Source: Squalus acanthias (lineage: Eukaryota). Taken from it: 64,000 bases of DNA. The translations under genes and the position numbers were made by a program. The notes under the pieces are model-generated. The model was not told where the DNA came from, searched no databases, and was given only the letters and a program-made list of their open reading frames with translations. Every line of letters begins with the position of its first letter. The first letter of the stretch is position 1. The stretch spans positions 139,998,001-140,062,000 of the forward strand of contig CM059431.1 of NCBI GenBank assembly GCA_030390025.1, in the 5' to 3' direction. This document shows, piece after piece, positions 1,530-64,000 of the stretch.

Positions 1530-2341
1530 TGTTAGATTCGAATTTGGAGAAACTCTAGACGGAGACGGAATTGAGGACAAGTTCAGAATTTATTAAAATA
1601 AACAAAAGACTTGTGCACAAGGGAGAGCCACTCAGCTTCCTCAAGCTAGGGGCGCACTCTCTGAGGAACAAGTAATGGTTCATTCAAGTTATACATTTCT
1701 ATAAGCACCGCCCACTTACTACAGAATGGGGCGTACACGTACAAACAGTGTCACTACAGTTACTCTCTATTGGTTATATGGTTAGTCACTCAACTGTCGG
1801 GCCCTCCCCTTGAACCCTGACCATGCCAGTCACAGATGTTGGTTGCCTCATCCTACTCCCCAAATTCTTGCTGTTATCTCTTCCTTTGCGGGCATAGTTT
1901 ATAGTTTGAGAAAACATATTTTATCCCTGGCTGTCGGACAGAGCGGGGTGGCTCAAGGCCGTAATGGCTTGGATGCTCAGTGACTGGAACCGTGTTGGTC
2001 ATTAATTGCTCCCTTATCTCTTGGGCGACCAGGTTCGAATAGTAGATGTACCCACCGTGCCTGGAACTGTGTTGGTTGTTAATTGCTCCCTTATCTCTTG
2101 GGAGGCCAGGCTGTGCTTTGACAATGGCTCTACTGAGGTTGTGAATACATATATCCCAAGGTTTGATAAGGGGAGGGAGGCACCTTCCAGTCTACAAATA
2201 TGCCTTAATTAGCTAAACCTACTATCCGAAATAAGTAGAGGGTAATGTAGTCAAGTATCCCAGCATTCTTTGGGAACAAGCAGGATCCTTCAGTAGTAGT
2301 CAAGTATCCCAGAGTTCTTTGGGAACAAGCTGGATCCTTCA
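1530..2341 (-). repeat. 3' LTR of ERV-A (812 bp)
   Basis: Direct repeat of 7824-8634; on the minus strand CCAAT (~1770), TATAGAA (~1700), AATAAA (1594-1589); ~49-bp tandem duplication at the U3 start. Confidence 0.95.
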
Positions 2342-2343
2342 GT

Positions 2344-2361
2344 CCCCCCTTCCAATCCCCC
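2344..2361 (-). promoter_or_regulatory. Polypurine tract of ERV-A
   Basis: GGGGGATTGGAAGGGGGG then AC immediately before the TG of the 3' LTR; conserved in ERV-B (~16121-16138). Confidence 0.85.
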
Positions 2362-2687
2362 GAAAAGGACCCTTGAAGGGGGTTGGAGAGTGTGCTCTCT
2401 ACGCTAAATAGTGTGATAAGCTAGTGAGTGTATAATATGTCAGAAACGCATATAGGTTTTTCCCGGATCAACTAGCACGAATGATGAAGGTTTACCTGTA
2501 ACCCCACCCAATTTATTCTATACTTCCCCCTAGGCCTTTGGCTATTCCAGGTAGGCCGCACATTCGTTGCATATGGTCTGGTGTGAGTCCTGTCGGGGTG
2601 GCCACCCGTCTAGGCACCAGGTATGCATCAGATGAGTGAAGTTGCTATTTAGGCATTCCCCGATTCATTATATGATTGCTTCATTAT

Positions 2688-4773
2688 TCATGCACATGAT
2701 TTCTCCAACAAGTTGTCAAAATCATCATCTGAAACACTTGGAGTAGGAGCAGTACAAGCATTAACAGTTTTAACCACTTGCTTTGCAATTTGTTTAGCCC
2801 GAGTCCGTTTACATTTCCTGCATGTCATACATAACAAGGTCAGGACAATTACTAACTGCACCACGACTAATACATATGAAATCAATCGGATCCATGGATG
2901 GATCTGTATATTTAGTCCCCAGTCCCAAATGTCATCCAGCCATGTGGTCACCTTGATCGCGCGATATCTTTCTTCAGATCCGTGTTCCGTTGTTGTAGAG
3001 TATAGTACACCTTCTGGGAGAGTCGTATCTCCTTTCGCAACTGCCTCAGGTGTTCGGGCAGGGGGGGTATAGGATACCCAAAGGTGTTGATGTAGTCCCA
3101 TAATCCATACTTGATGTCTTCAGACACTTGAAGAAAGGTAATATCAAACTGGTGTATGTCCACCAATTCCTCATGTCCAATCCGTACCGGAACTGCGGGG
3201 GTGAAGCAGAACTCTGAACTGGGGATGTTGCAAGTTAGATTGGCATACTCAAACGTTTTCAGGTTGGTCGTCACACAGTATTCGCCTTTGCCGGCGTACG
3301 CCACCTGGGTAGGCTTTGAGGCTGCGTCCAATGCTTCCATGGTGCAGTTAATTTCCATGCCTGTGTTATTAAAACCACATTGGGCTTGCGGGCTTTGGCT
3401 GATTGCATGCGGGCACATGATGATGGCATGTCTGGTGACACATCCCTCCAGCTTGGTACCCATCCAGTCTCCTTTCACCATCACTGCATAAGGTAATATA
3501 TTGTGGTAAGATATATGCATGCCATCTTTTAATATACCAATATTTTGTACCTGATACACCTCCCGCCCTTGTGTCTCTGGTGTCATTACCGGGACGACCA
3601 GAATTAGCCCCAGGAATCCCCCCCCCCGTCTGGTCTGCATTCAACCTGCGTGGGGAATACCCGTACCATGGCTCGGAATTGACAAACTGTCATATTGAGG
3701 CTACTTAAGAGATGTTTGGGTGTACCCGCCCCAGCGTGTCCACGAGTCAGGGTCCCTTTTAACTGTTGGTTGGTAATCCACAGGGGTACCTCCCCTGCCT
3801 GTATCTGTTCCAGGTTTTCTCGGGTTTGCTCCACTATCCAATTCCCATATGTGCTGCAAACGTCGTTTGCTGATGCCTGCTGTGAGGCATTGTATTCTTC
3901 TTTAATTAACTTATTTATAGTCTGTGCGTGTGTTTCTAACACAGTAGCTATATCCTGCAGGTATACGGTTAATATCTGGTCCTCCTTTAACTCTTGGTCC
4001 TCACTCTTATTTTGCTCTTGTAAAATAGCTTTAATGCGGGAACCCAGATCCCGGACCTTCTGATCTACGGTAGCCAGATCAATGGTGTTAACGACCGACG
4101 TGCCAGTGTTAAAAATCGTTGCTGCATCATTAACTAAAGACCTCTTACGTCGCCATACCCGCCGGCTTCCCTGTCTATATCCGCCTCCGCTACGATCCGC
4201 GCCTTGTTTCAATACCTGTGTTAGAAGGCGCTGGTATAACTGTTGGGTTTGTGGTGAGCACCAAGCAGGCAGGGCGGTGTTGGCCAGGTTTAGCACCACT
4301 GACACTAATTCATGACGCACATTATCATACAATATATCCCCAGTACGGGTGAACACCAACCCACTAGCGGGTCCCTCTTTCACGGGGGGGCAGGTCAGTG
4401 GCTCGCGCTCGGAGGGGAAAGGTGTTGTGGAAACCATTGGGGGCAGGGGTGTAGGGGGGGCACCCCAGTAGCAGTCGATAACCAGCGGTAGCCCGGGCTC
4501 CTCGTATTGTTCTATGATTCCGAAAGTCTGACATCTCTCTGAGGTAGGCGTGCATGAGGGGTCCCAGTGCCCCGCATTATTCTGACAGCATATCCTGTCC
4601 GTCTTCCCTGTGATTTTACTGGTACAAACTCCCCTGTGCGTTTTGTGTGGACCAGTAGTCATTTCACAGAAAAAGGGGGCTCCCGACCGGTCGACGCAGA
4701 ACCCCAGTGCCGTGATGGGTGTTGTTTGTTCACTGATCAGTATCCCTATCATTCCCATGATAAGCCACCCCAT
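2688..4773 (-). pseudogene. env: Envelope glycoprotein (class I fusion, F-protein-like), ~695 aa when joined, split by two 1-nt frameshifts (~3620, ~2960)
   Basis: Signal peptide MGWLIMGMIGILIS; furin site RRKR (4152-4141) followed by fusion-peptide/heptad region; Cys-rich block; Trp-rich membrane-proximal region; TM helix LISYVLVVVQLVIVLTLLC; ORFs 3604-4773, 2948-3640 and 2688-3101 overlap end to end. Confidence 0.88.
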
Positions 4774-4830
4774 GGTTATCCTATACCACCGCTAGGCAGA
4801 AGGAGTCCAATTTGTTTATCTGTCTCGACA

Positions 4831-5421
4831 CTAGCTTGTACAGTAGTAACTAGCAGGCTCTCTCTCTCTCTCTCTCTCTCTCCCTGTTTGTCCTGGTATT
4901 GGCCGTGTGCGCAGGGCTCGGAGCGGGGTTAGGGCTACTTCATATGTGGCATTGAGACGGTGGCCTTGTGACAGTGGCTCAATGTAACTTACCTGACTTA
5001 ACGTGATCCGGTAAGGGTTAGGAGCTGTCGGACGGGGATGGGTGAAGACAGGTTGCACTGTCCTCCTTCGGAGGTAGGAGGGTCTATAATAGGGAGTGGA
5101 TATCCCCTGGGGAAGGTCCTCCAGTCCCGACACCAGCGGTTCCCAAAGAGCAGCTGTATCTCGGAACCGGTCTGTCTCCCCTGCACGGGGTAGGGTGAAT
5201 AAAAGAGTCTGAGTTCTGTTGGGATGTAAAGCGAGGGGTCCGGTGGCCCTACCACAAAAGGGAGATAACCGGAACTCTAGAGTCAAGGGGTGAATCCCGG
5301 GGAAGGTTAGAGTCGTATAATAATGTGAGTTCGCGGGATCCCTGGTTAAGTCGAAAGCCTGGACCGTAGAAAGGTCGACATCCCCGGTAGTGGTGGCAGT
5401 ACTGAGGTCGGACCCACTCAT
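4831..5421 (-). CDS. Retroviral accessory ORF of unknown function (196 aa from the ATG at 5421)
   Basis: Open frame; ATG directly follows a canonical acceptor (TTTTACCTGTCTCTTTCTTACAG|ATG); homologous disrupted copy in ERV-B. Confidence 0.6.
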   Translation of the reverse strand: MSGSDLSTATTTGDVDLSTVQAFDLTRDPANSHYYTTLTFPGIHPLTLEFRLSPFCGRATGPLALHPNRTQTLLFTLPRAGETDRFRDTAALWEPLVSGLEDLPQGISTPYYRPSYLRRRTVQPVFTHPRPTAPNPYRITLSQVSYIEPLSQGHRLNATYEVALTPLRALRTRPIPGQTGREREREREPASYYCTS

Positions 5422-5944
5422 CTGTAAGAAAGAGACAGGTAAAATAGCAACCCGAGGAACCGACTTAATGCTTTGAAATCCGGTCCTGATCAAGTATAGG
5501 GGAGAAAAAGGCAGGTCAATACTTGTTTTTATTTCTTTTTAATTGTAAAACGAACACAACAGATATGTCTTTAAAAGGGTTGACAGCTTAAAAGGGTTAA
5601 CAGCTTTTAGCTCTCTGTACCAAAAGGTGGGTGGAGCTAACAGATACAACAGACATTTCCTCAAAAGGGTTAACAGCTTTTAGCTCTCTGTACCAAAAGG
5701 TGGGTGGAGCTAACAGATACAACAGGCACCCTTTTTAAAACAGACTTTCAGACCAAGGAAATACCGTAACTTCTTAGAGTTTATAGTCAGGAAACTTTCA
5801 CACAGACTTTCACACAGACTTACAGACAGACTGAGATCTCAGCATTCCCTTTAAGATTCCTTTCGCTCAGCAAATTCTGGATTTTACTTTTTTTTTTATT
5901 CTCCAAGAGGTGGGGAAATCTCTTCCCCGGGCCCCGTCACCGGC

Positions 5945-7212
5945 TTAGTCTGGCTCCATTTTAATACCCCCGGGTGCCGTGGTGGACCAGGGCAGAGAAG
6001 CTGGGGTGAGTCCTTGACAGGAGGCATGAAGGTCTGTCTGGTGAAGCCCAAAGTGTCGACTAGCCCACTCCCGGATTCCGGCCTCCGTGGGCTGGTGGCT
6101 GGCCCCCATTCGGAGGGCGGTTTGGTAGGGCTTTTCCAGCCCCTGGAGTAGATTATCTAAGAACCGTGGGTCGTCATGATTAGCGGGAATGTTATTCGTC
6201 TGGCCCCAATGTTCATACTGCTCGATTACTCGATCAATGTACACATTGGGGTTTTCTCCGGGACTCTGGCGCAGGGCGGTGAGCCCCACCCAGGTAGCGG
6301 TGCCGTTGCCCAGTCCAGCCTGCGCCCAGGTTTTTAAACCATTGAATTGGATCTCATACTCTGCTACCGTGGCTGGGACATTTAAGACATGGGGTCCCAA
6401 TGTCTCATAAACCATAGAGGGACATTTTACCTCAATAATATCTTTTATGTCTTGTATGGACAAATTAAAGTGCCGAGCAGCACTTCGTATTTTTGCCCAT
6501 ACTTCGACGTTAGGATTGTATCTTTTGAGGTCGGGAATGAGGAGGATGACGCTGGATCTCTCCTGGGGCGTAAAAGAATGAGCCTCGCCCATCATACCCC
6601 GTCCACCTATCTCTGCGTTTTGGGCTCCTGCTGCCGGATTAACTCGGACGGGGGCCGTGGGGTTGGATTTTCCTGCCCCAGACTGAAGCGGTAAGGTGGG
6701 ATAGATACTTGTGTATTCGGGGGGGCACGTGGGTTGGATGGCTTCAACTCGTTGAACCTTTACGGTCCCCGATGGGGGCCGGGGTTCTAGGATCGGTGTG
6801 TCTCGAGTCTCCTTTTGTAGAGCCTCAACAATGTCACCCCAGTTTTTCAAATCGTCTAGATTCTCAGTCCCTGGCGACTTAAGGTGCAGGAGATTGCTAA
6901 CTTGGACTTTAGCCTCCTGCATAGGTCTCAAGAATCCTTGAAACGGGGTCGGTCTTCCCCTCTTATCCACGATTATAGATCCCATCTGATCCATCCAACT
7001 AGTACACAGAACCGCCCCATACTTAGCTTGTTTGTTTTTTTTTGTTCCGCCCACCACTTTATTTGGTCAGCTACTGAGCTTGTTTCTTTCCACCCCTTTT
7101 TAACCATTTCACTCTGAAGTTTCAAATTAGCCTCTCGGACCTGTTGAACGACAGTGACACTGGTGGCCATAGCCGGAACGTCGGGTGAAAGAGATCTCCC
7201 CTTGTTTCCCAT
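5945..7212 (-). pseudogene. gag: Gag polyprotein (~422 aa when joined), 1-nt frameshift at the T9 run 7035-7043, C-terminally truncated (no CCHC)
   Basis: MG N-terminus; PPEY, YPTL, PTAP motifs; MHR-like LRQSPGENPNVYIDRV; ERV-B homolog reads through the frameshift site (EQKDGKQAKYG). Confidence 0.85.
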
Positions 7213-7789
7213 GTGATCCATATTAATAGTCACGTGTATTCTTATACTCTATCTTATACTTTAATCGGCACAAGCGACACAAACTTACACTCTAAACAGA
7301 CTCTAACTTAAATCCCTCCGGGTCGTCACCCGGTATTTTGCGTACACTTAATCGTCACGGGATCACGATCCTGTGGTGTTTTAGTTCTCTACACCTACTT
7401 GATCCTGGCCGTCACGTGGGGCCCAATCGCCCTCTTAATTCAGGCTCAGGCTAGGTGTTTGAGATAGACAACCACCCTTGTCCGTGTCGATCACCCGTGA
7501 CTCTCAAGGATCCAATCTTATACTTTAAATCAGAAATATACACTTATCACCTTATACTCTAAATCAGAAAAAAACCCCACTTATGTCTAATCAATTCCGT
7601 CAGTCCGGTCTCCGTGAGGAATAATTTAAGTTGTGGGTACTTTTATACTGACTGAACCATAAACGGTTTTAGCCCCACCGGTGACGAGCGAGTCCTTGTT
7701 CCTCCTAAAAGCCTTACTCTGGCTTTTCCCTTAGGACACAACATGGTTCTCGCTTTAACCGTCACTTCCAGTGTCTTTAACTCCTATGG

Positions 7790-7802
7790 TCCTTACCTGC
7801 AG
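7790..7802 (-). promoter_or_regulatory. Putative major splice donor in the ERV-A leader
   Basis: CTGCAG|GTAAGG just downstream of the PBS; conserved in ERV-B (~23023-23034). Confidence 0.6.
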
Positions 7803-7803
7803 T

Positions 7804-7821
7804 ATCCCACTTCTGACACCA
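7804..7821 (-). promoter_or_regulatory. Primer binding site, tRNA-Leu(CAA)
   Basis: TGGTGTCAGAAGTGGGAT, complementary to the 3' 18 nt of vertebrate tRNA-Leu(CAA), 2 nt after the LTR end. Confidence 0.88.
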
Positions 7822-7823
7822 AC

Positions 7824-8634
7824 TGTTAGATTCGAATTTGGAGAAACTCTAGACGGAGACGGAATTGAGGACAAGTTCAGAATTTATTAAAATAAACAAA
7901 AGACTTGTGCACAAGGGAGAGCCACTCAGCTTCCTCAAGCCAGGGCGCACTCTCTGAGGAACAAGTAATGGTTCATTCAAGTTATACATTTCTATAAGCA
8001 CCGCCCACTTACTACAGAATGGGGCGTACACGTACAAACAGTGTCACTACAGTTACTCTCTATTGGTTATATGGTTAGTCACTCAACTGTCGGGCCCTCC
8101 CCTTGAACCCTGACCATGCCAGTCACAGATGTTGGTTGCCTCATCCTACTCCCCAAATTCTTGCTGTTATCTCTTCCTTTGCGGGCATAGTTTATAGTTT
8201 GAGAAAACATATTTTATCCCTGGCTGTCGGACAGAGCGGGGTGGCTCAAGGCCGTAATGGCTTGGATGCTCAGTGACTGGAACCGTGTTGGTCATTAATT
8301 GCTCCCTTATCTCTTGGGCGACCAGGTTCGAATAGTAGATGTACCCACCGTGCCTGGAACTGTGTTGGTTGTTAATTGCTCCCTTATCTCTTGGGAGGCC
8401 AGGCTGTGCTTTGACAATGGCTCTACTGAGGTTGTGAATACATATATCCCAAGGTTTGATAAGGGGAGGGAGGCACCTTCCAGTCTACAAATATGCCTTA
8501 ATTAGCTAAACCTACTATCCGAAATAAGTAGAGGGTAATGTAGTCAAGTATCCCAGCATTCTTTGGGAACAAGCAGGATCCTTCAGTAGTAGTCAAGTAT
8601 CCCAGAGTTCTTTGGGAACAAGCTGGATCCTTCA
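7824..8634 (-). repeat. 5' LTR of ERV-A (811 bp)
   Basis: By eye differs from 1530-2341 only at ~7940 (one substitution + 1-nt indel). Confidence 0.95.
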
Positions 8635-8715
8635 GCGTGGTCACAAACGATTATTCTCAACATCATGTTTCCACGTTGGGACTTTGAGGGAATAATTCAA
8701 CATGTTTCAGCTCTG

Positions 8716-10130
8716 ACTAGCTCAACTGGACAGGGATCACCGCGCCAAGCACAGCTGGACAGAAAGACCCAGGGACTAGCTCAGCTGGACAGGGATACCC
8801 AGGGAATGGCACAGCTGGACAGAGATACAGAGGGACTAGCTCAGACGGACAGGGATACAGAGGGACTAGCTCAGATAGACAGGGATACCCAGGGAATGGC
8901 ACAGCTGGACAGGGATACAGAGGGACTAGCACTACTGGACAGAGATACCCAGGGAATGGCACAGCTGGACAGGGATACCCAGTGACAAGCACAGCTGGGC
9001 AGAGATACCCAGGGACTAGCACAGCTGGACAGAGATACCCAGGGACCAGCTTACTGGACAGGAATGCCCAGTGACAAGCACAGCTGGAGAGAGATACCCA
9101 GGGACTAGCAGAGCTGGACAGGGATACCCAGGGAATGGCACAGCTGGACAGGGATACCCAGGGACTAGCACAGCTAGACAGGGATACCCAGGGATTGGCA
9201 CAGCTGACAGATATACCATGCGACTAGCACAGCTGGACAGGGATACCCAGAGATTTGCACAGCTGGACAGGGATACCCAGGGACTAGCTCAGCTTCACAG
9301 GGATACCCAGGGACTAGCTCAGATGGAGAGGTATAGCCAGGGAATAGCACAGCTGGACAGCGAATCCCAGTGACTAGCACAGCTGGACAGCGATACCCAG
9401 TGACTAGCACAGCTGGACATGGAAACACAGTGACTGGCACAGCTGGACAGAGATACCCAGGGACCAGCACAGCTGGACAGGGATACCCAGGGAAAGGCAC
9501 AGCTGGACAGAGATACCCAGGGACTGGCACAGCTGGATAGGGATACCCCTGGAATAGCACAGCTGGACAGATACCCAGTGACTAGCATAGCTGGACAGGG
9601 ATACCCAGGGACTAGCTCAGATGGAGAGGGATAGCTAGGGACCAGCACAGCAGGACAGAGATACCCAAGGACGAGCACAGCTGGACAGAGATACCTAGGG
9701 ACCAGCACAGCTGGGCAGAGAAACCCGGGGCCAGCAGAGCTGGACTGAGATAACCAGGGACCAGCACAGCTGGACAGAGATACCCAGGGACCAGCACAGC
9801 AGGACAGAGATACCCAGGGACTAGCACAGCAGGACAAAGATACCCAGGGACCAGCACAGCTGGACAGAGATACCCTGGGACTAGCACAGCTGGACAGGGA
9901 TACCCAGGGACTAGCACAGCTGGACAGAGATACCCAGGGACTAGCACAGCTGGACAGAGATACTCAGGTACTAGCACAGCAGGACAGAGATACCCAGGGA
10001 CCAGCACAGCTGGACAGAGATACTCAGGGACTAGCTCAGATGGACAGAGATACCCTGGGACTAGCTCAGATAGACAGAGATACCCTGGGACTAGCACAGA
10101 TGGGCAGGGATACCCTGGGATTAACACTGC
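8716..10130. repeat. 30-bp minisatellite (CTAGCACAGCTGGACAGAGATACCCAGGGA)n
   Basis: About 47 tandem units with 30-bp period. Confidence 0.95.
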
Positions 10131-52092: not shown

Positions 52093-52239
52093 ATTGCACC
52101 AGAAAATATCCTAATGTTTTAAATCAGCTGTAAAACAAAAGAAACAATTTGATTTTGGTAGATTCCGGGTAATTCAAGGGGAAAACTTTCCAGTTTAAGA
52201 ATATTTGGCTCGATTAGTAACATAAAGGTCTGATGGTAG

Positions 52240-55200
52240 AAACAGTGGATGTCCAAAGTTAGAAAGAGTGGTGTACCAATGCTAAAAACAGTGGAGGTCC
52301 AATGCTAAAAACACTGGAGGTGCAAAGCTAGCAACAATAGAGGTTCATAGCAATAAACCGTGGCGATCCAAAGTGAGAAAAAGTGGAGGTCCAAAGTTAG
52401 AAAGAGTGAAGGTCCAAAGCTAGAAAGAGTGAAGGTCCAAAGCTAGAAACTGTGAAGGTCCAAAGCTAGAAAGAGTGACGGTCCAAAGCTTGAAACAGTG
52501 AAGGTCCAAAGCTGGAAAGAGTGGAGTCCAAGCTAGAAACTGCGAAGGTACAAAGCTAGAAAGAGTGGAGGTCCAAAGCTAGAAAGAGTGGAGTTCCAAA
52601 CCTAGAAACTGTGAAGGTCCAAAGCTAGAAACTGTGAAGTTCCAAAGCTAGAAACTGTGAAGGTCCAAAGCTAGAAAGAGTGGAGGTCCAAAGCTAGAAA
52701 TTGTGAAGGTCCAAATCTAGAAACAGTGGAGGACCAAAGCTAGAATCTGTGAAGGTCCAAAGCGAGAAACTGTGAAGGTCCAAAGCTAGAAAGAGTGGAG
52801 GTTCAAAGCTAGAAACAGTGGAGGTCCAAAGCTAGAAAGAGTGAAGGTCCAAAGCTAGAAACAGTGGAGGTCCAAAGCTAGAAACAGTGAAGGTCCAAAG
52901 CTAGAAACAGTGAAGGTCCAAAGCTAGAAACAGTGGAGTTCCAAAGCTAGAAACAGTGAAGGTCCAAAGCCAGAAACAGTGGAGGTCCAAAGCTAGAAAC
53001 AGTGGAGGTCCAAAGCTAGAAACTTTGGTGTCCAAAGCTAGAAACAGTGGAGGTCCAAAGCTAGAAAGAGTAAAGGTCCAAAGCTAGAAACAGTGGAGGT
53101 CCGAAGCTAGAAACAGTGGAGGTCCAAAGCTAGAAACTGTGAAGGTCCAAAGCTAGAAACATTGAAGGTCCAAAGGTAGAAAGAGTGAAGGTCCAAAGCT
53201 AGAAACAGTGGGGTTCCAAAGCAAGAAACAGTGAAGGTCCAAATCTAGAAAATGTGAAGGTCCAAAGCTAGAAACAGTGAAGGTCCAAATCTAGAAACAG
53301 TGGACGTCCAAAGCTAGAAACTGTGAAGATCCAAAGCTAGAAACAGTGAAGGTCCAAAGCTAGAAAGAGTGGAGGTCAAAAACTAGAAACTGTGAAGGTC
53401 CAAAGCTAGAAACTGTGAAGGTCCAAAGCTAGAAACAATGAAGGTCCAAAGCTAGAAACAGTGCAGGTCCAAAGCTAGAAACAGTGACGGTTCAAAGATA
53501 GAAACTGTTAAGGTCCAACGCTAGAAACAGTGGTGGTCCAAAGCTAGAAATAGTGGAGGTCCAAAGCTAGAAACAGTGGAGGTCCAAAGCTAGAAACTGT
53601 GATGATCCAAAGCTAGAAACTGTGAAGGACCAAAGCTAGAAACAGTGGAGGTTCAAAGCTAGAAACTGTGAAGGTCCAAAGCTAGAAACAGTGAATATCC
53701 AAAGCTAGAAACAGTGAAGGTCCAAAGCTAGATAGAGTGAAGATCCAAAGCTGGAAAGAGAAGACATCCAAAGCTAAAAACAGTGGAGGTCCAAAGGTAG
53801 AAAGAGTGAAGGTCCAAAGCTAGAAAGAGTGAAGGTCCAAAGCTAGAAACAGTGGAGATCCAAAGCTAGAAAGCGTGAATGTCCAATGCGAGAAAAAGTG
53901 GAGATCCAATGCTAGAAACAGTGCAGGTCCAAAGCTAGAAACCGTGGAGAACCTAAGCAAAAAGATTGAATGTCCAAAGCTAGAAAGAGTGTAGATCCAA
54001 AGCTAGAAACAGTGGCGATCCAAAGCTAGAAACAGTGATGGTCCAAATCTAGCAATAGAGGAGGTCCAAAGCTAGAAAGACTGAAGTCCAAAGCTAGAAA
54101 CAGTGGAGATCCAAAGCTAGAAACAGTGGAGATCCAAAGCTAGAAACAGTAATGGACATCAGCTAGAAACAGTGTAGCTCGAAAGCTAGAAACAGTGGAG
54201 GTCCAAAGCTAGAAACAGTGAAGGTCCAATGCTAGAAACAGTGGAGGTCCACAGTTAGATACAGTGGAGATACAAAGCTGGAAACAGTGAAGGTCCAAAG
54301 CTAGAAGCAGTGGAGCTCCAAAGCTAGAAACAGTGGAGATACAAAGCTGGAAACAGTGAAGGTCCAAACCTAGAAAAAGTGGAGGTCCAAAGCTAGAAAC
54401 TGTGAAGATCCAAAGCTAGAAACAGTGAAGAGCAAAAGCTAGAAACAGTGGAGGTCCAAAGCTAGAAACAGTGGAGGTCCAAAGCTAGAAACAGTGAAGG
54501 TCCAAAGCTAGAAACAGTGAAGGTTCAAAGCTAGAAACTGTGAAGGTCCAAAGCTAGAAACAGTGAAGATCCAAAGCTAGAAACAGTGGAGATACAAAGC
54601 TGGAAACAGTGAAGGTCCAAAACTAGAAACTGCGAAGGTCCAAAGCTAGAAACTGTGAAGGTCGAAAGCTAGAATCAATGAAGTTCCAAAGCTAGAAACA
54701 GTGGAGGTCCAAACCAAGAAACAGTGAAGATCCAAAGCTAGAAAGAGTGAAGGTCCAAAGTAAGAAACAGTGGAGATCCAAAGCTAGAAAGAGTTAATTT
54801 CCAATGCTAGAAAAAGTGGAGATCCAATGCTAGAAACAGTGGAGGTCGAAAGCTAGAAACAGTGGAGGTCCAAAGCTAGAAAGATTAAATGTCCAAAGCT
54901 AGAAAGAGTGCAGGTCCAAAGCTAGAAAAAGTGGAGATCCAAAGCAAGAAACAGTGAAGGTCCAATGCTAGAAACAGTGGAGGTCCAAAGCTAGAAAGGC
55001 TGAAGGTCCAAAGCTAGAAACAGTGAAGGTCCAAAGCTAGAAACTGTGAAGGTACAAAGCTAGAAACAGTGGAGATCCAAAGCTAGAAACAGTGAAGGTC
55101 CAAAGCTAGAAACTGTGAAGGTACAAAGCTAGAAACATTGGAGATTCAAAGCTAGAAACAGTGGAGATCGAAAGCTAGAAACAGTGGAGTTCCAAAGCTA

Positions 55201-58200
55201 GAAACAGTGAAGGTCCAATGCTAGAAACAGTGGAGGTCCAAAGTTAGAAACAGTGGAGATACAAAGCTGGAAACAGTGAAGGTCGAAAGCTAGAAACAGT
55301 GGAGCTCCAAAGCTAGAAACAGTGGAGATACAAAGCTGGATACAGTGAAGGTCCAAAGCTAGAAACAGTGGAAGTCCAAAGCTAGAAACAGTGTAGCTCC
55401 AAAGCTAGAAACAGTGGAGGTCCAAAGCTAGAAACAGTGGAGATACAAAGCTGGAAACAGTGAAGGTGCAAAGCTAGAAACAGTGGAGGTCCAAAGCTAG
55501 AAACAGTGAAGGTCCAAAGCTAGAAACAGTGAAGATCCAAAGCTAGAAACAGTGAAGAGCAAAAGCTAGAAACAGTGGAGGTCCAAAGCTAGAAACAGTG
55601 GAGGTCCAAAGCTAGAAAGAGTGAAGGTCCAAAGCTAGAAACAGTGGAGGTCCAAAGCTAGAAACAGTGAAGGTCCAAAGCTAGAAACAGTGAAGGTCCA
55701 AAGCTAGAAACAGTGGAGTTCCAAAGCTAGAAACAGTGAAGGTCCAAAGCCAGAAACAGTGGAGGTCCAAAGCTAGAAACAGTGGAGATCCAAAGCTAGA
55801 AACTTTGGTGTCCAAAGCTAGAAACAGTGGAGGTCCAAAGCTAGAAAGAGTAAAGGTCCAAAGCTAGAAACAGTGGAGGTCCGAAGCTAGAAACAGTGGA
55901 GGTCCAAAGCTAGAAACTGTGAAGGTCCAAAGCTAGAAACATTGAAGGTCCAAAGCTAGAAAGAGTGAAGGTCCAAAGCTAGAAACAGTGGGGTTCCAAA
56001 GCAAGAAACAGTGAAGGTCCAAATCTAGAAAATGTGAAGGTCCAAAGCTAGAAACAGTGAAGGTCCAAATCTAGAAACAGTGGACGTCCAAAGCTAGAAA
56101 CTGTGAAGATCCAAAGCTAGAAACAGTGAAGGTCCAAGCTAGAAAGAGTGGAGGTCAAAAACTAGAAACTGTGAAGGTCCAAAGCTAGAAACTGTGAAGG
56201 TCCAAAGCTAGAAACAATGAAGGTCCAAAGCTAGAAACAGTGCAGGTCCAAAGCTAGAAACAGTGACGGTTCCAAAGATAGAAACTGTGAAGGTCCAACG
56301 CTAGAAACAGTGGAGGTCCAAAGCTAGAAAGAGTGGAGGTCCAAAGCTAGAAACAGTGGAGGTCCAAAGCTAGAAACTGTGGATGATCCAAAGCTAGAAA
56401 CTGTGAAGGACCAAAGCTAGAAACAGTGGAGGTTCAAAGCTAGAAACTGTGAAGGTCCAAAGCTAGAAACAGTGAATATCCAAAGCTAGAAACAGTGAAG
56501 GTCCAAAGCTAGATAGAGTGAAGATCCAAAGCTGGAAAGAGAAGACATCCAAAGCTAAAAACAGTGGAGGTCCAAAGGTAGAAAGAGTGAAGGTCCAAAG
56601 CTAGAAAGAGTGAAGGTCCAAAGCTAGAAACAGTGGAGATCCAAAGCTAGAAACAGTAAAGAGCAAAAGCTAGAAACAGCGGAGATCCAAAGCTAGAAAC
56701 AGTGGAGATCCAAAGCTAGAAACAGTAATGGACATCAGCTAGAAACAGTGTAGCTCGAAAGCTAGAAACAGTGGAGGTCCAAAGCTAGAAACAGTGAAGG
56801 TCCAATGCTAGAAACAGTGGAGGTCCACAGTTAGATACAGTGGAGATACAAAGCTGGAAACAGTGAAGGTCCAAAGCTAGAAGCAGTGGAGCTCCAAAGC
56901 TAGAAACAGTGGAGATACAAAGCTGGAAACAGTGAAGGTCCAAACCTAGAATAAGTGGAGGTCCAAAGCTAGAAACTGTGAAGATCCAAAGCTAGAAACA
57001 GTGAAGAGCAAAAGCTAGAAACAGTGGAGGTCCAAAGCTAGAAACAGTGGAGGTCCAAAGCTAGAAACAGTGAAGGTCCAAAGCTAGAAACAGTGAAGGT
57101 TCAAAGCTAGAAACTGTGAAGGTCCAAAGCTAGAAACAGTGAAGATCCAAAGCTAGAAACAGTGGAGATACAAAGCTGGAAACAGTGAAGGTCCAAAACT
57201 AGAAACTGCGAAGGTCCAAAGCTAGAAACTGTGAAGGTCGAAAGCTAGAATCAATGAAGTTCCAAAGCTAGAAACAGTGGAGGTCCAAACCTAGAAACAG
57301 TGAAGATCCAAAGCTAGAAAGAGTGAAGGTCCAAAGCTAGAAACAGTGGAGATCCAAAGCTAGAAAGAGTTAATGTCCAATGCTAGAAAAAGTGGAGATC
57401 CAATGCTAGAAACAGTGGAGGTCGAAAGCTAGAAACAGTGGAGGTCCAAAGCTAGAAAGATTAAATGTCCAAAGCTAGAAAGAGTGCAGGTCCAAAGCTA
57501 GAAAAAGTGGAGATCCAAAGCAAGAAACAGTGAAGGTCCAATGCTAGAAACAGTGGAGGTCCAAAGCTAGAAAGGCTGAAGGTCCAAAGCTAGAAACAGT
57601 GAAGGTCCAAAGCTAGAAACTGTGAAGGTACAAAGCTAGAAACAGTGGAGATCCAAAGCTAGAAACAGTGAAGGTCCAAAGCTAGAAACTGTGAAGGTAC
57701 AAAGCTAGAAACATTGGAGATTCAAAGCTAGAAACAGTGGAGATCGAAAGCTAGAAACAGTGGAGTTCCAAAGCTAGAAACAGTGAAGGTCCAATGCTAG
57801 AAACAGTGGAGGTCCAAAGTTAGAAACAGTGGAGATACAAAGCTGGAAACAGTGAAGGTCGAAAGCTAGAAACAGTGGAGCTCCAAAGCTAGAAACAGTG
57901 GAGATACAAAGCTGGATACAGTGAAGGTCCAAAGCTAGAAACAGTGGAAGTCCAAAGCTAGAAACAGTGTAGCTCCAAAGCTAGAAACAGTGGAGGTCCA
58001 AAGCTAGAAACAGTGGAGATACAAAGCTGGAAACAGTGAAGGTGCAAAGCTAGAAACAGTGGAGGTCCAAAGCTAGAAACAGTGAAGGTCCAAAGCTAGA
58101 AACAGTGAAGGTCCAAAGCTAGAAACGGTGGAGATACAAAGCTGGAAACAGTGAAGGTCCAAAGCTAGAAACAGTGGAGCTCCAAAGCTAGAAACAGTGG

Positions 58201-61200
58201 AGGTCCAAAACTAGAAACTGTGAAGGTCCAAAGCTAGAAACAGTGAAGGTCCAAAGATAGAAACTGTGAAGGTCCAAAGCTAGAAACAGTGGAGATCCAA
58301 AGCTAGAAACAGTGGAGATCCAAAGCTAGCAACAGTAATGGACATAAGCTAGAAACAGTGTAGCTCGAAAGCTAGAAACAGTGGAGGTCCAAAGCTAGAA
58401 ACAGTGAAGGTCCAATGCTAGAAACAGTGAAGGTCCACAGTTAGATACAGTGGAGATACAAAGCTGGAAACAGTGAAGGTCCAAAGCTAGAAGCAGTGGA
58501 GCTCCAAAGCTAGAAACAGTGGAGATACAAAGCTGGAAACAGTGAAGGTCCAAACCTAGAAAAAGTGGAGGTCCAAAGCTAGATCTGTGAAGATCCAAAG
58601 CTAGAAACAGTGAAGAGCAAAAGCTAGAAACAGTGGAGGTCCAAAGCTAGAAACTGTGGAAGGTCCAAAGCTAGAAACTGTGAAGGTCCAAAGCTAGATA
58701 CTGTGAAGGTCCAAAGCTAGAAACAGTGAAGGTTCAAAGCTAGAAACTGTGAAGGTCCAAAGCTAGAAACAGTGAAGATCCAAAGCTAGAAACAGTGGAG
58801 ATACAAAGCTGGAAACAGTGAAGGTCCAAAACTAGAAACTGCGAAGGTCCAAAGCTAGAAACTGTGAAGGTCGAAAGCTAGAATCAATGAAGTTCCAAAG
58901 CGAGAAGCAGTGGAGCTCCAAAGCTAGAAACAGTGGAGATACAAAGCTGGAAACAGTGAAGGTCCAAACCTAGAAAAAGTGGAGGTCCAAAGCTAGATCT
59001 GTGAAGATCCAAAGCTAGAAACAGTGAAGAGCAAAAGCTAGAAACAGTGGAGGTCCAAAGCTAGAAACTGTGGAGGTCCAAAGCTAGAAACTGTGAAGGT
59101 CCAAAGCTAGATACTGTGAAGGTCCAAAGCTAGAAACAGTGAAGGTTCAAAGCTAGAAACTGTGAAGGTCCAAAGCTAGAAACAGTGAAGATCCAAAGCT
59201 AGAAACAGTGGAGATACAAAGCTGGAAACAGTGAAGGTCCAAAACTAGAAACTGCGAAGGTCCAAAGCTAGAAACTGTGAAGGTCGAAAGCTAGAATCAA
59301 TGAAGTTCCAAAGCTAGAAACAGTGGAGGTCCAAACCAAGAAACAGTGAAGATCCAAAGCTAGAAAGAGTGAAGGTCCAAAGTAAGAAACAGTGGAGATC
59401 CAAAGCTAGAAAGAGTTCATTTCCAATGCTAGAAAAAGTGGAGATCCAATGCTAGAAACAGTGGAGGTCGAAAGCTAGAAACAGTGGAGATCCAAAGCTA
59501 GAAAGATTAAATGTCCAAAGCTAGAAAGAGTGCAGGTCCAAAGCTAGAAAAAGTGGAGATCCAAAGCTAGAAACAGTGAAGGTCCAAAGCTAGAAACAGT
59601 GGAGGTCCAAAGCTAGAAAGGCTGAAGGTCCAAAGCTAGAAACAGTGAAGGTCCAAAGCTAGAAACTGTGAAGGTACAAAGCTAGAAACAGTGAAGGTCC
59701 AAAGCTAGAAACAGTGGAGCTCCAAAGCTAGAAACAGTGGAGATACAAAGCTGGAAACAGTGAAGGTCCAAAGCTAGAAACAGTGGAGGTCCAAAGCTAG
59801 AAACAGTGAAGGTCCAAAGCTAGAAACAGTGGAGGTCCAAAGCTAGAAACAGTGGAGATACAAAGCTAGAAACAGTGAAGGTCCAAAGCTAGAAACAGTG
59901 GAGGTCCAAAGCTAGAAACAGTGAAGGTCCAAAGCTAGAAACAGTGAAGGTCCAAAGCTAGAAACAGTGGAGATACAAAGCTAGAAACAGTGAAGGTCCA
60001 AAGCTAGAAACAGTGGAGCTCCAAAGCTAGAAACAGTGGAGGTCCAAAACTAGAAACTGTGAAGGTCCAAAGCTAGAAACAGTGAAGGTCCAAAGATAGA
60101 AACTGTGAAGGTCTAACGCTAGAAACAGTGGTGGTCCAAAGCTAGAAATAGTGGTGGTCCAAAGCTAGAAACAGTGGAGGTCCAAAGCTAGAAACTGTGA
60201 AGATCCAAAGCTAGAAACAGTGAAGGTCCAAAGCCAGAAACAGTGGAGGTCCAATTATAGAGACAGTGAAGGTCCAAAGCTAGAAACTGTGAAGGTCCAA
60301 AGCTAGAAACTGTGAAGGACCAAAGCTAGAAACAGTGGAGGTTCAAAGTTAGAAACTCGGAAGGTCCAAAGCTAGAAACAGTGAATATCCAAAGCTAAAA
60401 ACAGTGAAGGTCCAAAGCTAGATAGAGTGAAGATCCGAAGCTGGAAAGAGAGGACATCCAAAGCTAGAAACAGTGGAGGTCCAAAGGTAGAAACAGTGAA
60501 GGTCCAAAGCTAGAAAGAGTGAAGATCCAAAGCTAGAAACAGTGGAGATCCAAAGCTAGAAAGAGTGAATGTCCAATGCTAGAAAAAGTGGAGATCCAAT
60601 GCTAGAAACAGTGCAGGTCCAAAGCTAGAAACAGTGGAGATCCAAAGCAAAAAGATTAAATGTCCAAAGCTAGAAAGAGTGTAGATCCAAAACTAGAAAC
60701 AGTGATGGTCCAAATCTAGCAAAAGCGGAGGTCCAAAGCTAGAAAGACTGAAGGTCCAAAACTAGAAACAGTGGAGATCCAATCTAGAAACAGTGGAGAT
60801 ACAAAGCTAGAAACAGTAGTAGACATAAGCTAGAAACAGTGGAGCTCCAAAGCTAGAAACAGTGGAGGCCCAAAGCTAGAAACAGTGAAGGTCCAAAGCT
60901 AGAAGCAGTGGAGCTCCAAAGCTAGAAACAGTGGAGATACAAAGCTGGAAACAGTGAAGGTCCAAACCTAGAAAAAGTGGAGGTCCAAAGCTAGAAACTG
61001 TGAAGATCCAAAGCTAGAAACAGTGAAGAGCAAAAGCTAGAAACAGTGGAGGTCCAAAGCTAGAAACAGTGGAGGTCCAAAGCTAGAAACAGTGAAGGTC
61101 CAAAGCTAGAAACAGTGAAGGTTCAAAGCTAGAAACTGTGAAGGTACAAAGCTAGAAACAGTGGAGATCCAAAGCTAGAAACAGTGAAGGTCCAAAGCTA

Positions 61201-64000
61201 GAAACTGTGAAGGTACAAAGCTAGAAACATTGGAGATTCAAAGCTAGAAACAGTGGAGATCGAAAGCTAGAAACAGTGGAGTTCCAAAGCTAGAAACAGT
61301 GAAGGTCCAATGCTAGAAACAGTGGAGGTCCAAAGTTAGAAACAGTGGAGATACAAAGCTGGAAACAGTGAAGGTCGAAATCGAGAAACAGTGGAGCTCC
61401 AAAGCTAGAAACAGTGGAGATACAAAGCTGGATACAGTGAAGGTCCAAAGCTAGAAACAGTGGAAGTCCAAAGCTAGAAACAGTGTAGCTCCAAAGCTAG
61501 AAACAGTGGAGGTCCAAAGCTAGAAACAGTGGAGATACAAAGCTGGAAACAGTGAAGGTGCAAAGCTAGAAACAGTGGAGGTCCAAAGCTAGAAACAGTG
61601 AAGGTCCAAAGCTAGAAACAGTGAAGGTCCAAAGCTAGAAACGGTGGAGATACAAAGCTGGAAACAGTGAAGGTCCAAAGCTAGAAACAGTGGAGCTCCA
61701 AAGCTAGAAACAGTGGAGGTCCAAAACTAGAAACTGTGAAGGTCCAAAGCTAGAAACAGTGAAGGTCCAAAGATAGAAACTGTGAAGGTCCAACGCTAGA
61801 AACAGTGGTGGTCCAAAGCTAGAAATAGTGGTGGTCCAAAGCTAGAAACAGTGGAGGTCCAAAGCTAGAAACTGTGAAGATCCAAAGCTAGAAACAGTGA
61901 AGGTCCAAAGCCAGAAACAGTGGAGGTCCAATTATAGAGACAGTGAAGGTCCAAAGCTAGAAACTGTGAAGGTCCAAAGCTAGAAACTGTGAAGGACCAA
62001 AGCTAGAAACAGTGGAGGTTCAAAGTTAGAAACTCGGAAGGTCCAAAGCTAGAAACAGTGAATATCCAAAGCTAAAAACAGTGAAGGTCCAAAGCTAGAT
62101 AGAGTGAAGATCCGAAGCTGGAAAGAGAGGACATCCAAAGCTAGAAACAGTGGAGGTCCAAAGGTAGAAACAGTGAAGGTCCAAAGCTAGAAAGAGTGAA
62201 GATCCAAAGCTAGAAACAGTGGAGATCCAAAGCTAGAAAGAGTGAATGTCCAATGCTAGAAAAAGTGGAGATCCAATGCTAGAAACAGTGCAGGTCCAAA
62301 GCTAGAAACAGTGGAGATCCAAAGCAAAAAGATTGAATGTCCAAAGCTAGAAAGAGTGTAGATCCAAAACTAGAAACAGTGATGGTCCAAATCTAGCAAA
62401 AGCGGAGGTCCAAAGCTAGAAAGACTGAAGGTCCAAAACTAGAAACAGTGGAGATCCAATCTAGAAACAGTGGAGATACAAAGCTAGAAACAGTAGTAGA
62501 CATAAGCTAGAAACAGTGGAGCTCCAAAGCTAGAAACAGTGGAGGCCCAAAGCTAGAAACAGTGAAGGTCCAATGCTCGAAACAGTGGAGGTCCAAAGTT
62601 AGAAACAGTGGAGATACAAAGCTGGAAACAGTGAAGGTCCAAAGCTAGAAACAGTGGAGCTCCAAAGCTAGAAACAGTGGAGATACAAAGCTGGAAACAG
62701 TGAAGGTCCAAACCTAGAAAAAGTGGAGGTCCAAAGCTAGAAACTGTGAAGATCCAAAGCTAGAAACAGTGAAGAGCAAAAGCTAGAAACAGTGGAGGTC
62801 CAAAGCTAGAAACAGTGGAGGTCCAAAGCTAGAAACAGTGAAGGTCCAAAGCTAGAAACAGTGAAGGTCAAAGCTAGAAACTGTGAAGGTCCAAAGCTAG
62901 AAACAGTGAAGATCCAAAGCTAGAAACAGTGGAGATCCAAAGCTAGAAACAGTGAAGGTCCAAAGCTAGAAACTGTGAAGGTCCAAAGCTAGAAACTGTG
63001 AAGGTCCAAAGCTAGAAACAGTGAAGGTTCCAAAGCTAGAGACAGTGGAGGTCCAAACCTAGAAACAGTGGAGATCCAAAGCTAGAAACAGTGAAGGTCC
63101 AATGCTAGAAACAGTGGAGGTCCAAAGCTAGAAATGCTGAAGGTCCAAAGCTAGAAACAGTGGAGGTCCAAAGCTAGAAACAGTGAAGGTCCAATGCTAG
63201 AAACAGTGGAGGTCCAAAGCTAGAAACAGTGGAGATACAAAGTTGGAAACAGTGAAGGTCCAAAGCTAGAAACAGTGGAGCTCCAAAGCTAGAAACAGTG
63301 GAGATACAAAGCTGGATAAAGTGAAGGTCCAAAGCTAGAAACAGTGGAGATCCAAAGCTAGACACAGTGAAGGTCCAAAGCTAGAAACTGTGAAGGTGCA
63401 AAGCTAGAAAGAGTGAAGGTCCAAAGCTAGAAAGAGAGGAGATCCAAAGCTAGAAACAGTGGAGTTCCAAAGCTAGAAAGAGTGAAGGTCCGAAGCTAGA
63501 AACAGTGGAGATACAAAGCTGGAAACAGTGAAGGTCCAAACCTAGAAAAAGTGGAGGTCCAAAGCTAGAAACTGTGAAGATCCAAAGCTAGAAACAGTGA
63601 AGAGCAAAAGCTAGAAACAGTGGAGGTCCAAAGCTAGAAACAGTGGAGGTCCAAAGCTAGAAACAGTGAAGGTCCAAAGCTAGAAACAGTGAAGGTTCAA
63701 AGCTAGAAACTGTGAAGGTCCAAAGCTAGAAACAGTGAAGATCCAAAGCTAGAAACAGTGGAGATACAAAGCTGGAAACAGTGAAGGTCCAAAACTAGAA
63801 ACTGTGAAGGTCCAAAGCTAGAAACTGTGAAGGTCCAAAGCTAGAAACAATGAAGTTCCAAAGCTAGAGACAGTGGAGGTCCAAACCTAGAAACAGTGGA
63901 GATCCAAAGCTAGAAACAGTGAAGGTCCAATGCTAGAAACAGTGGAGGTCCAAAGCTAGAAATGCTGAAGGTCCAAAGCTAGAAACAGTGGAGGTCCAAA
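52240..64000. repeat. 23-bp satellite (TCCAAAGCTAGAAACAGTG[G/A]AGG)n with higher-order duplications
   Basis: About 500 tandem units running to the window end. Confidence 0.97.

Follow-up and report, generated by a model that had tools for sequence, protein, structure and literature searches.

Organization of the env gene

The window analysed here is a stretch of 64,000 nucleotides (nt) of Squalus acanthias DNA (assembly GCA_030390025.1, contig CM059431.1, positions 139,998,001 to 140,062,000). Near its start, the minus strand carries an endogenous retrovirus (ERV) of ~7.1 kb (1530-8635) with the order long terminal repeat (LTR), primer-binding site (PBS), gag, orfX, env and LTR. The env gene of this element is the subject of the present analysis. 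On the evidence given below, it is very probably the gene of a recently inserted ERV for a class I fusogen of the type of the paramyxovirus fusion protein (F), and not for an envelope protein (Env) of the gamma or beta type, and it is broken in this copy.

The env gene starts with an ATG at 4773, ends with a stop codon at 2690-2688 and is spread over three frames, 4773-3607, 3640-2951 and 3119-2691, which correspond to the stop-to-stop frames 3604-4791, 2948-3640 and 2688-3119. The three pieces are colinear with residues 1-373, 369-591 and 593-679 of the uninterrupted Env of the paralogue L021. The colinear alignment to paralogues shows that the gene has exactly two frame breaks, as an earlier note made from the letters of the window had proposed. 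The first break lies at 3618-3627, inside a 10-nt G homopolymer, and the second at ~2960-2972, at the end of the region resembling heptad repeat B (HRB). The G run is not of constant length among the genomic copies, and length differences between the window and contigs of other sequencing runs occur at both breaks or directly beside them. The first break may stem from an assembly error in the homopolymer. This copy cannot make Env because the two breaks split the gene. Uninterrupted env frames of 629-760 codons exist in several other genomic copies, and these natural paralogues were used instead of a mended window gene.

The translation has a type I membrane layout, with a hydrophobic N-terminus and a single C-terminal anchor. 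Residues 1-16 (4726-4773) form a signal-peptide-like hydrophobic segment, which is a candidate for cleavage. It is followed by an N-terminal module with eight cysteines (residues 21-102, 4468-4713), recognized by its Cys pattern and lying outside the F alignment. Next to the module is a Pro-rich hinge, PPTPLPPMVSTTPFP (residues 106-120, 4414-4458), which has a predicted local distance difference test score (pLDDT) <50 in the paralogue model. The conserved core (GLVFTRTG) starts from CPPVKEGPASGLVFTRTG, after the hinge. The order of 8-Cys module, hinge and GLVFTRTG is the same as read in the earlier note. The core opens with an F2-like part (residues 128-207, 4153-4392), consisting of two strands and a helix resembling heptad repeat C (HRC) in the paralogue model. 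A furin-type site, RRKR, was located by a script on the translation at residues 208-211 (4141-4152). A furin site near residue 211 with ~484 residues in the downstream subunit had been expected, and ~487 codons, read piecewise, were found after RRKR. A basic site at the same alignment column is shared by the paralogues and the lokiretrovirus-type Envs described below.

The segment after the cleavage site, residues 212-234 (4072-4140), is homologous by position to the fusion peptide FLGALL... of lokiretrovirus-type Envs. It is followed by a long helical region resembling heptad repeat A (HRA; residues 235-326, 3796-4071), which is helical in the model and aligns to the HRA of postfusion F. A beta-rich region at 3197-3616 aligned to F domains I and II. 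It includes a Cys cluster at 3451-3197, corresponding to residues 64-148 of the second piece. The long helical region precedes the cluster and the second heptad region follows it, as had been noticed earlier. This HRB-like heptad region occupies 2960-3067 (model helix 562-591). A Trp-rich membrane-proximal segment and a transmembrane (TM) anchor are present at 2820-2960 (model helix 614-659), with the 25-residue anchor at 2894-2820. The protein ends with a basic cytoplasmic tail of ~43 codons, which together with the stop codon covers 2688-2819. The CX6CC motif was not found in any env piece nor in L021, and the only CX6C is in the N-terminal module. Similarly, the window pieces and the intact paralogues did not match the retroviral-TM Pfam families TLV_coat and GP41. 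The earlier remark that CX6CC is missing is therefore correct. The companion remark on a missing immunosuppressive domain (ISD) agrees with these two results, the motif and the Pfam match being what was checked for it.

Predicted fold and structural matches

The fold was predicted by AlphaFold2 for the L021 Env, which is 68-76% identical to the window pieces, with an alignment of 79 rows (65 of the 76 profile matches described below and 14 first rows). The model has a mean pLDDT of 71 and a predicted TM-score (pTM) of 0.53, and most blocks of residues 110-180 and 290-530 are above 85. In the F2-like segment, strands 127-137 and 141-150 and helix 162-183 show pLDDT of 86-96, and the segment aligns to the start of the F2 of human parainfluenza virus 3 (hPIV3), respiratory syncytial virus (RSV) and Nipah virus. 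Helices 221-243 and 249-313 (L021 numbering) form the HRA-like region, and the strands in 374-524 show pLDDT of 85-98. On this model the nested domains I, II and III with HRA and HRB, to which both subunits contribute, could be matched. A role as internal fusion loop was considered for the hydrophobic stretch FLGLILVVPV but rejected, as the model shows it with high confidence as a buried core strand.

Foldseek search of the model against PDB gave 252 matches at E<=0.001, and all 41 among the matches listed are paramyxo-/pneumovirus F. The best were postfusion RSV F (6apb_A, 7.8e-11) and hPIV3 F (1ztm_A, 2.0e-10). A VIA second look at 991 chains found 220 chains at Z>=8. The 50 F entries listed there have Z from 12.8 to 9.5 and span model residues 121-123 to ~530. 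Examples are 1ztm_B (Z 12.8, 336 aligned, root-mean-square deviation (rmsd) 16.0), 8tve_A (Z 12.2, 361 aligned, rmsd 8.1) and Nipah F 8dmj_A (Z 11.2, 295 aligned, rmsd 5.0). A wide VIA search of 48,161 chains, made without Foldseek, placed 10 F entries and 2 foamy-virus Env entries in the top 12. The foamy entries are the postfusion form 8rm1_D (Z 8.6, 293 aligned) and the prefusion form 8rm0_A (Z 8.0, 269 aligned). Below rank 12, the matches are mostly helical and 55-150 residues long, with three more F entries at ranks 17, 22 and 43. No gamma- or beta-type retroviral TM was found among the matches listed in the 41 Foldseek rows, the VIA second look and the 50 rows of the wide VIA search. The earlier note had named best matches to gamma- or beta-type Env, or lack of a class I fold, as the outcomes that would speak against its proposal of an F-type fusogen. 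The best structural matches of the paralogue model are F proteins, with foamy Env next to them, and the proposal is upheld at this level.

The proteins at the top of every structural search of PDB, the paramyxo-/pneumovirus F proteins (hPIV3 1ztm, RSV 3rki/6apb, Nipah 8dmj, Newcastle disease virus (NDV) 3maw), share with the window Env the short N-terminal subunit and the long anchored subunit, along with the nested domains I/II/III, HRA and HRB. They differ in sequence, with only 6-14% identity, and the window Env is part of a retroelement and has its own N-terminal module. F relies on a separate attachment protein.

Search of the predicted viral structures in BFVD extended the likeness to other groups. 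The matches include arlivirus G (1.2e-13), baculovirus F (1.4e-12 to 9.7e-12), walleye epsilonretrovirus Env (3.2e-12 and 2.3e-9), paramyxovirus F0 (~1e-9) and foamy gp130 (7.7e-5). The models of the Envs of walleye epidermal hyperplasia virus 1 (WEHV-1, Q9WHI8) and walleye dermal sarcoma virus (WDSV, A4GTG3) match the L021 model better than foamy gp130 does, and the Q9WHI8 model (3.2e-12) is also better than the paramyxovirus F0 models among the matches listed. These Envs differ in having ~1,160-1,320 residues, roughly double the length, and their likeness is one between predicted models. In the literature search, no paper was found that describes epsilonretrovirus Env as F-like; one preprint places it outside the beta/gamma typing. 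Baculovirus F (Ld130, PF12259) and the F-type ENV of errantiviruses have the same F-type fold, their likeness to the window Env being one of BFVD models. These systems differ from the present one in invertebrate hosts and another pol lineage. The F-type fold in DNA viruses and Ty3/gypsy elements is described in the available text of PMC13524379 / bioRxiv 2023.10.26.564294, and in that text no vertebrate ERV homologous to the invertebrate elements is reported.

Sequence relationship with published F-type envelopes

When a profile of 14 family sequences was run on 1.84 billion representatives, 76 proteins matched at E<=0.001. The named members among them are from sharks, four frog genera and a cyprinid. 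A Chiloscyllium protein also belongs to the Env family. Pfam scan of 22 of the 76 revealed that two match PF00523 (P0064 and P0074) and one matches PF12259 weakly. For P0003, P0029 and P0022, the public gene models fuse family Env fragments to zinc-finger, F-box or cadherin domains, and these are probably annotation chimeras across ERV insertions.

In PDB sequence searches, single env pieces gave only chance coiled-coil or ribosomal matches, and the 14-sequence profile gave nothing. A profile of 79 sequences matched foamy gp130 (4e-4 and 0.003) and, at 0.099, henipavirus F.

The closest published relatives were found among the lokiretroviruses. In the available text of PMC7947760, the lokiretrovirus Env matches PF00523 with an E value of 2.2e-7, and the PF00523 values of P0064 and P0074 mirror this figure. 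The start of the Loki-Bsp env consensus in the supplement of that paper, as far as available and translated by eye, closely matches the N-terminus of P0074. On the basis of this likeness, P0074-type proteins were treated as lokiretrovirus-type Env. When the profile of the shark family was compared by hhalign with a profile of nine lokiretrovirus-type proteins, a match of 98.8% (E 1.1e-16) was obtained over 374 columns with 19% identity. It extends from the PGPxxG(I/L)V core start into the beta domains and takes in the furin site, the fusion-peptide position and HRA. This profile alignment demonstrates, at the level of sequence, that the Env is homologous to lokiretrovirus-type Env.

According to the available part of PMC7947760, lokiretrovirus Env shares with the window Env the signal peptide, the RXKR site with a fusion-peptide position after it, the coiled coil and the TM anchor. 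It also has a detectable link to PF00523, as do the distant relatives of the present family. The two differ in the fusion peptide, which is strongly hydrophobic in the lokiretrovirus-type Env and polar at that place in the window Env. They differ also in the ~100 extra residues of the Cys module and hinge in the window Env, in addition to the low identity of 19%. The gamma-type ERV ectodomains described from cartilaginous fish (PMC11521997) were considered as the same family and rejected, since they are ISD-bearing and represent a different env type.

Several observations weigh against the F-type reading. The fold was predicted on a paralogue and not on the broken gene of the window. Full-length alignments have a large rmsd (5-19 A), as is expected when pre- and post-fusion features are mixed in a monomer model. 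The window pieces matched neither PF00523 nor PF12259 at E up to 1, and three intact paralogues gave no match at E up to 10. The two PF00523 matches of the family, P0064 (1.3e-6, 27.4 bits) and P0074 (4.7e-6, 25.6 bits), are below the gathering cut-off of 29.8 bits; the PF12259 match of one member (0.0011, 18.1 bits) likewise stands against a cut-off of 24.1. Residues 212-234 are polar for a fusion peptide, with a mean Kyte-Doolittle value of 0.66 compared to 1.6-1.7 in lokiretrovirus-type Envs. The 79-sequence profile also marginally matches the TM chain of human endogenous retrovirus K (HERV-K) Env, 9nnd_a (E 0.0023). This match takes in the FCxTP motif along with the second heptad region and the anchor. 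It may be due to chance at the membrane anchor or to a remote tie to the beta-type TM. A word-indexed protein search with just the N-terminal module found no homologue outside the family, and the module folded alone reached a mean pLDDT of 40, too low for a usable model. In view of the Pfam results, the likeness to F is claimed for the predicted fold, and membership in PF00523 at the sequence level is not claimed.

The N-terminal module

The eight cysteines of the module are at residues 26, 36, 50, 62, 63, 74, 81 and 101, and the C..C..CC..C..C pattern is kept in the sub-lineages. The module is the fastest-evolving part of env, with dN (nonsynonymous divergence) of 0.65 compared to 0.11-0.15 in the core, while dS (synonymous divergence) is saturated. 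The F alignment begins at model residue 121-123, and everything before it, from the signal peptide over the Cys module to the hinge, lies outside the F fold. Lokiretrovirus-type Envs (P0064, P0074) start their core directly after the signal peptide, while the window Env has residues 21-120 before the core. As the lokiretrovirus-type core follows the signal peptide at once, the ~100 residues before the core of the window Env represent an addition. Both lines of evidence support the earlier description of the module as appended.

Other members of the family have different sequences at this place. An immunoglobulin (Ig) V-set domain replaces the Cys module in P0073 (9.9e-6) and, weakly, in P0025, and P0012 is named Ig-like by its source. 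A Trp/Cys-rich region is found in place of the module in L039 and P0007. This suggests that N-terminal modules have been swapped between lineages. The module may bind the receptor, since it lies in front of the core, evolves fast and is exchanged for other modules in relatives, and since an envelope made of one protein has to attach to cells by itself.

Pol lineage of the related elements

The lineage of the Env family was approached through a relative that has gag, pro, pol and env. The Env of L023, 51% identical to the L021 Env, directly follows the integrase in a gag-pro-pol-env element, L044. The pol of L044 and pols 68% identical to it were compared with PDB. For reverse transcriptase (RT), the bit scores were 233 for murine leukaemia virus and xenotropic MLV-related virus (MLV/XMRV), 208 for the foamy protease-RT (PR-RT), 110 for Ty3 and 55 for human immunodeficiency virus 2 (HIV-2). 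For RT-RNase H they were 283 for MLV/XMRV, 106 for foamy PR-RT, 61 for Ty3 and ~30 for HIV. These scores, which are bit scores and not a phylogeny, favour a canonical class I-like pol, and the best score with MLV fits a gamma/epsilon-like lineage.

This bears on the possibility that the whole element is a lokiretrovirus (lokiortervirus) carrying its usual env, seen for the first time in a cartilaginous-fish-type genome. Lokiretroviruses are defined in PMC7947760, in its available text, by an RT that clusters with other lokiretroviruses, outside the canonical retroviruses. The pol of the related full element, which reaches 283 bits with MLV/XMRV compared to 106 with foamy virus, 61 with Ty3 and ~30 with HIV, is an indirect point against this possibility. 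The profile homology (hhalign 98.8%), the shared PGPxxG(I/L)V core start, furin site and FNxGxSxxN segment, and the presence of the Env family in frogs and a cyprinid, host groups from which lokiretroviruses are described in the available part of PMC7947760, are in favour of this possibility. Against these stand the identity of only 19% and the absence of the N-terminal module from lokiretrovirus-type Envs. Moreover, the Orectolobiformes row of the PMC7947760 supplement, in its available form, gives 0 lokiretroviruses in 3 genomes, yet the Chiloscyllium protein is a member of the Env family. The main text of the same paper, as available, names five host classes, and cartilaginous fish are not among them; "cartilaginous", "shark" and "Chondrichthyes" do not occur in it. 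An element that is a lokiretrovirus throughout is rather unlikely.

A second reading separates pol from env. In it, the shark-type ERVs would be canonical class I (gamma/epsilon-like) by pol, with an Env that is homologous to lokiretrovirus Env and a kin in fold of foamy and epsilonretrovirus Env. The env would then be an old and widely shared type with interchangeable receptor-binding modules. This reading is put forward tentatively, as a possibility that is still somewhat doubtful.

The pol scores and the structural matches also concern a third explanation, according to which the gene is the env of a foamy-like (class III) ERV. Foamy gp130 belongs, like the window Env, to the retroviral Envs whose fusion machinery resembles F. 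Among PDB entries it is the best match of the sequence profile (E 4e-4), both foamy Env states give structural Z of 8.0-8.6, and the RT fingers/palm score 208 bits with foamy PR-RT compared to 233 with MLV. The 4-bp duplication at the ends of the element also fits, as foamy viruses make 4-bp duplications. However, F proteins outrank foamy Env structurally, and the RNase H matches MLV (89 bits), while the match to foamy PR-RT stops at query residue 254, short of RNase H. The anatomy of the protein differs as well. In the available text of PMC11468914, the foamy leader peptide has its own membrane span, and a receptor-binding domain (RBD) of ~330 residues (217-543) lies between HRC and the furin site. 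In the window Env, a leader with an N-terminal cytoplasmic part and a first span was not found; a hydrophobic segment of 16 residues starts at residue 1, as in a short signal. The HRC-like helix of the model ends at 183 and cleavage would occur after 199, so only ~15 residues lie between them, with no RBD. The extra domain of ~80 residues in the window Env sits before the F2-like segment. A foamy-like origin is very unlikely on these grounds.

Copies of the Env family and selective constraint

The first env piece has at least 113 matches in the 3.7-Gb genome. This count is a lower bound obtained from 106 scored of 8,140 first-look candidates. The Env of a more distant paralogue has 69 genome matches. 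A word-indexed protein search found nothing among longer proteins and, at near lengths, only 3 shark proteins. An IMG/VR scan for exogenous relatives, made with a single pol query, found no relative.

Selective constraint on env was estimated by the Nei-Gojobori method. The dN/dS was 0.22 between L021 and L022 (681 codons), and 0.16, 0.14 and 0.23 between L021 and window pieces 1, 2 and 3, respectively. Between L039 and L040 it was 0.09. The env gene is under purifying selection between lineages. Together with the copy number, this shows that the frame is no accident of the sequence.

Purifying selection would also be expected if the locus were a domesticated host fusogen, a co-option of the syncytin kind, and the sequence is present in contigs of runs whose RNA status is guessed. 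But the signal is between retroviral lineages and not between orthologues, this copy carries two frame breaks, and it is one of many near-identical young copies, with LTRs 99.75% identical. Co-option of this locus is highly improbable.

Other observations were made on the copies. Between 0.39 and 0.72 of the env 31-mers were found in sequencing runs that bear the labels of six different organisms, which indicates near-identical copies under several species labels. Copies of the L021/L022 type (L021, L022, L045-L047) are shorter than the window element and consist of LTR, leader, env and LTR, with an uninterrupted env and without gag or pol. Env-carrying non-autonomous derivatives, of both the window type and the L021/L022 type, have multiplied. 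A related pol family, 56-59% identical in the RNase H-integrase region, has an open frame of 1,187 codons at dozens of sites, which points to very recent ERV activity in the genome.

Structure of the element and its surroundings

In the orientation of the element, the 5' LTR is at 7824-8635 and aligns to the 3' LTR at 1530-2342, which has a purine-rich tract just before it; like all other parts of the element, both are on the minus strand. The alignment of the LTR pair covers 813 nt with 99.75% identity (1 mismatch and 1 gap). The LTR ends are TG..CA, and the element is flanked by a 4-bp duplication, GCGT. The near-identical LTRs indicate a young insertion. A TGG-led PBS of 18 nt (7804-7821) follows the 5' LTR at a distance of 2 nt. 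The genome contains the complement of the PBS 389 times, compared to 0 for the reversed control. The PBS matches the 3' end of an 84-nt tRNA-like gene with a long variable arm, which is present at least 238 times, in tandem clusters. ARAGORN gave the anticodon CCA for a sampled copy, and the 3' end of the gene presumably resembles that of vertebrate tRNA-Leu(CAA). A splice-donor-like site, CAG|GTAAGG, was read from the sequence at 7795-7803.

A gag-like open frame of 373 codons from stop to stop is present at 5945-7066. It is related to the gag frame of the full gag-pro-pol-env relative L044 (26% identity over 217 amino acids (aa), E 1.7e-13), and had neither a Pfam match nor a PDB sequence match. 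No pol was found in the window element by open frames, Pfam scan or tblastn.

The arrangement of the element bears on one more explanation, in which the gene would be a non-retroviral endogenous viral element, a mononegavirus F gene captured and merely lying between LTRs. The fold and the weak PF00523 link do point to the F of Mononegavirales, and the top BFVD matches are arlivirus and lispivirus glycoproteins. The gene is, however, in the env position, between gag/orfX and the 3' LTR; in the relative, env directly follows the integrase of a gag-pro-pol-env element; the genome holds at least 113 matches; and contigs show a joint from the leader to orfX/env with GT..AG ends. This explanation has next to no chance of being right and is the least probable of those considered here.

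The gene orfX (196 codons, 4834-5421) lies between gag and env, and its ATG is the first codon past a splice acceptor. It is in the same frame as env, with three stops and a (GA)n run between them. Among the fetched loci, orfX is kept at 66-98% identity in 19 distinct places. Pfam search of its 235-codon stop-to-stop frame (4834-5538) was blank, the 196-aa protein gave no usable match in the ESM Atlas, and tblastn found no derivation from pol.

Contigs from 2 of the 4 sequencing runs examined join 7797 to 5421; both runs are from one study, and their RNA status is guessed, as none of the runs listed with the env sequence is recorded as RNA. The part skipped by this joint has GT..AG ends on the strand of the element. 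The GT follows CAG, and the skipped part ends with a polypyrimidine tract and CAG, the next codon being the ATG of orfX. The joint fits a spliced subgenomic RNA carrying orfX and env. Against this transcript reading, a DNA copy without gag would produce the same joint.

The surroundings of the element are rich in repeats. A fragment of a reverse transcriptase of the long interspersed nuclear element (LINE) type adjoins it at 2-769 on the plus strand (PF00078, E 1.1e-11). A 30-bp minisatellite with 47 copies (8715-10127) starts ~80 nt outside the 5' LTR. At the far end of the window, 11.8 kb (52237-64000) are occupied by a 23-bp satellite with at least 512 copies, which accounts for the extreme AT and GC skew of the window end.

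Proposed mechanism and significance

The layout of the intact Env, from the N-terminus, would be a signal peptide, the 8-Cys module, the hinge, the F2-like segment, RRKR, the fusion-peptide position and HRA, followed by beta domains I/II stapled by the Cys cluster, HRB, the Trp-rich stem, the anchor and the basic tail. The protein is predicted to form a trimer. Furin would cut it into a small N-terminal subunit and a large membrane-anchored subunit, which together would build the three nested domains. The N-terminal module may engage the cell, and the segment after the cleavage site may insert into the target membrane. HRA would then extend and fold back with HRB into a six-helix bundle. We infer trimerisation, cleavage, membrane insertion and bundle formation, and with them fusion activity, because such steps are established for F and for foamy Env, as described in the available text of PMC11468914. 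As the segment after RRKR is polar, the fusion-active element may differ, or fusion may be weak.

The kind of retroviral Env described here is already published. F-type Env in vertebrate retroviruses was reported for lokiretroviruses in 2020 (Wang & Han, PMC7947760) and for foamy viruses in 2024 (PMC11468914), according to the available parts of both papers. In the latter, Fernandez et al. distinguish a "complex-topology" subclass, apart from class Ia, with paramyxo-/pneumovirus F, coronavirus S2 and foamy Env, and the Env of the present family very probably falls into it. Possibly new are the occurrence in a shark-type genome, a pol that matches MLV best, the swappable N-terminal module and the pol-less derivative with gag, orfX and env.

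The practical meaning of the locus itself is small, since the copy is defective and its element a derivative without pol. F-type envelopes have become a subject of work on vertebrate retroviruses only recently, and the Env family adds to them a well-populated, young and partly intact clade in a cartilaginous-fish-type genome. It also provides a bridge to lokiretrovirus Env at the level of sequence. Its simple modular design, in which a small and swappable domain is placed in front of an F core, differs from the internal RBD of foamy Env and from the separate attachment protein of paramyxoviruses. If the pol lineage is canonical, the published view that the env of canonical retroviruses and that of lokiretroviruses came from separate sources would need revising. 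If the tentative reading of a canonical pol joined to an old and widely shared env is true, the F-type fusogen would not be an oddity of lokiretroviruses and foamy viruses, and would link lineages which have been given different env origins (PMC9040795).

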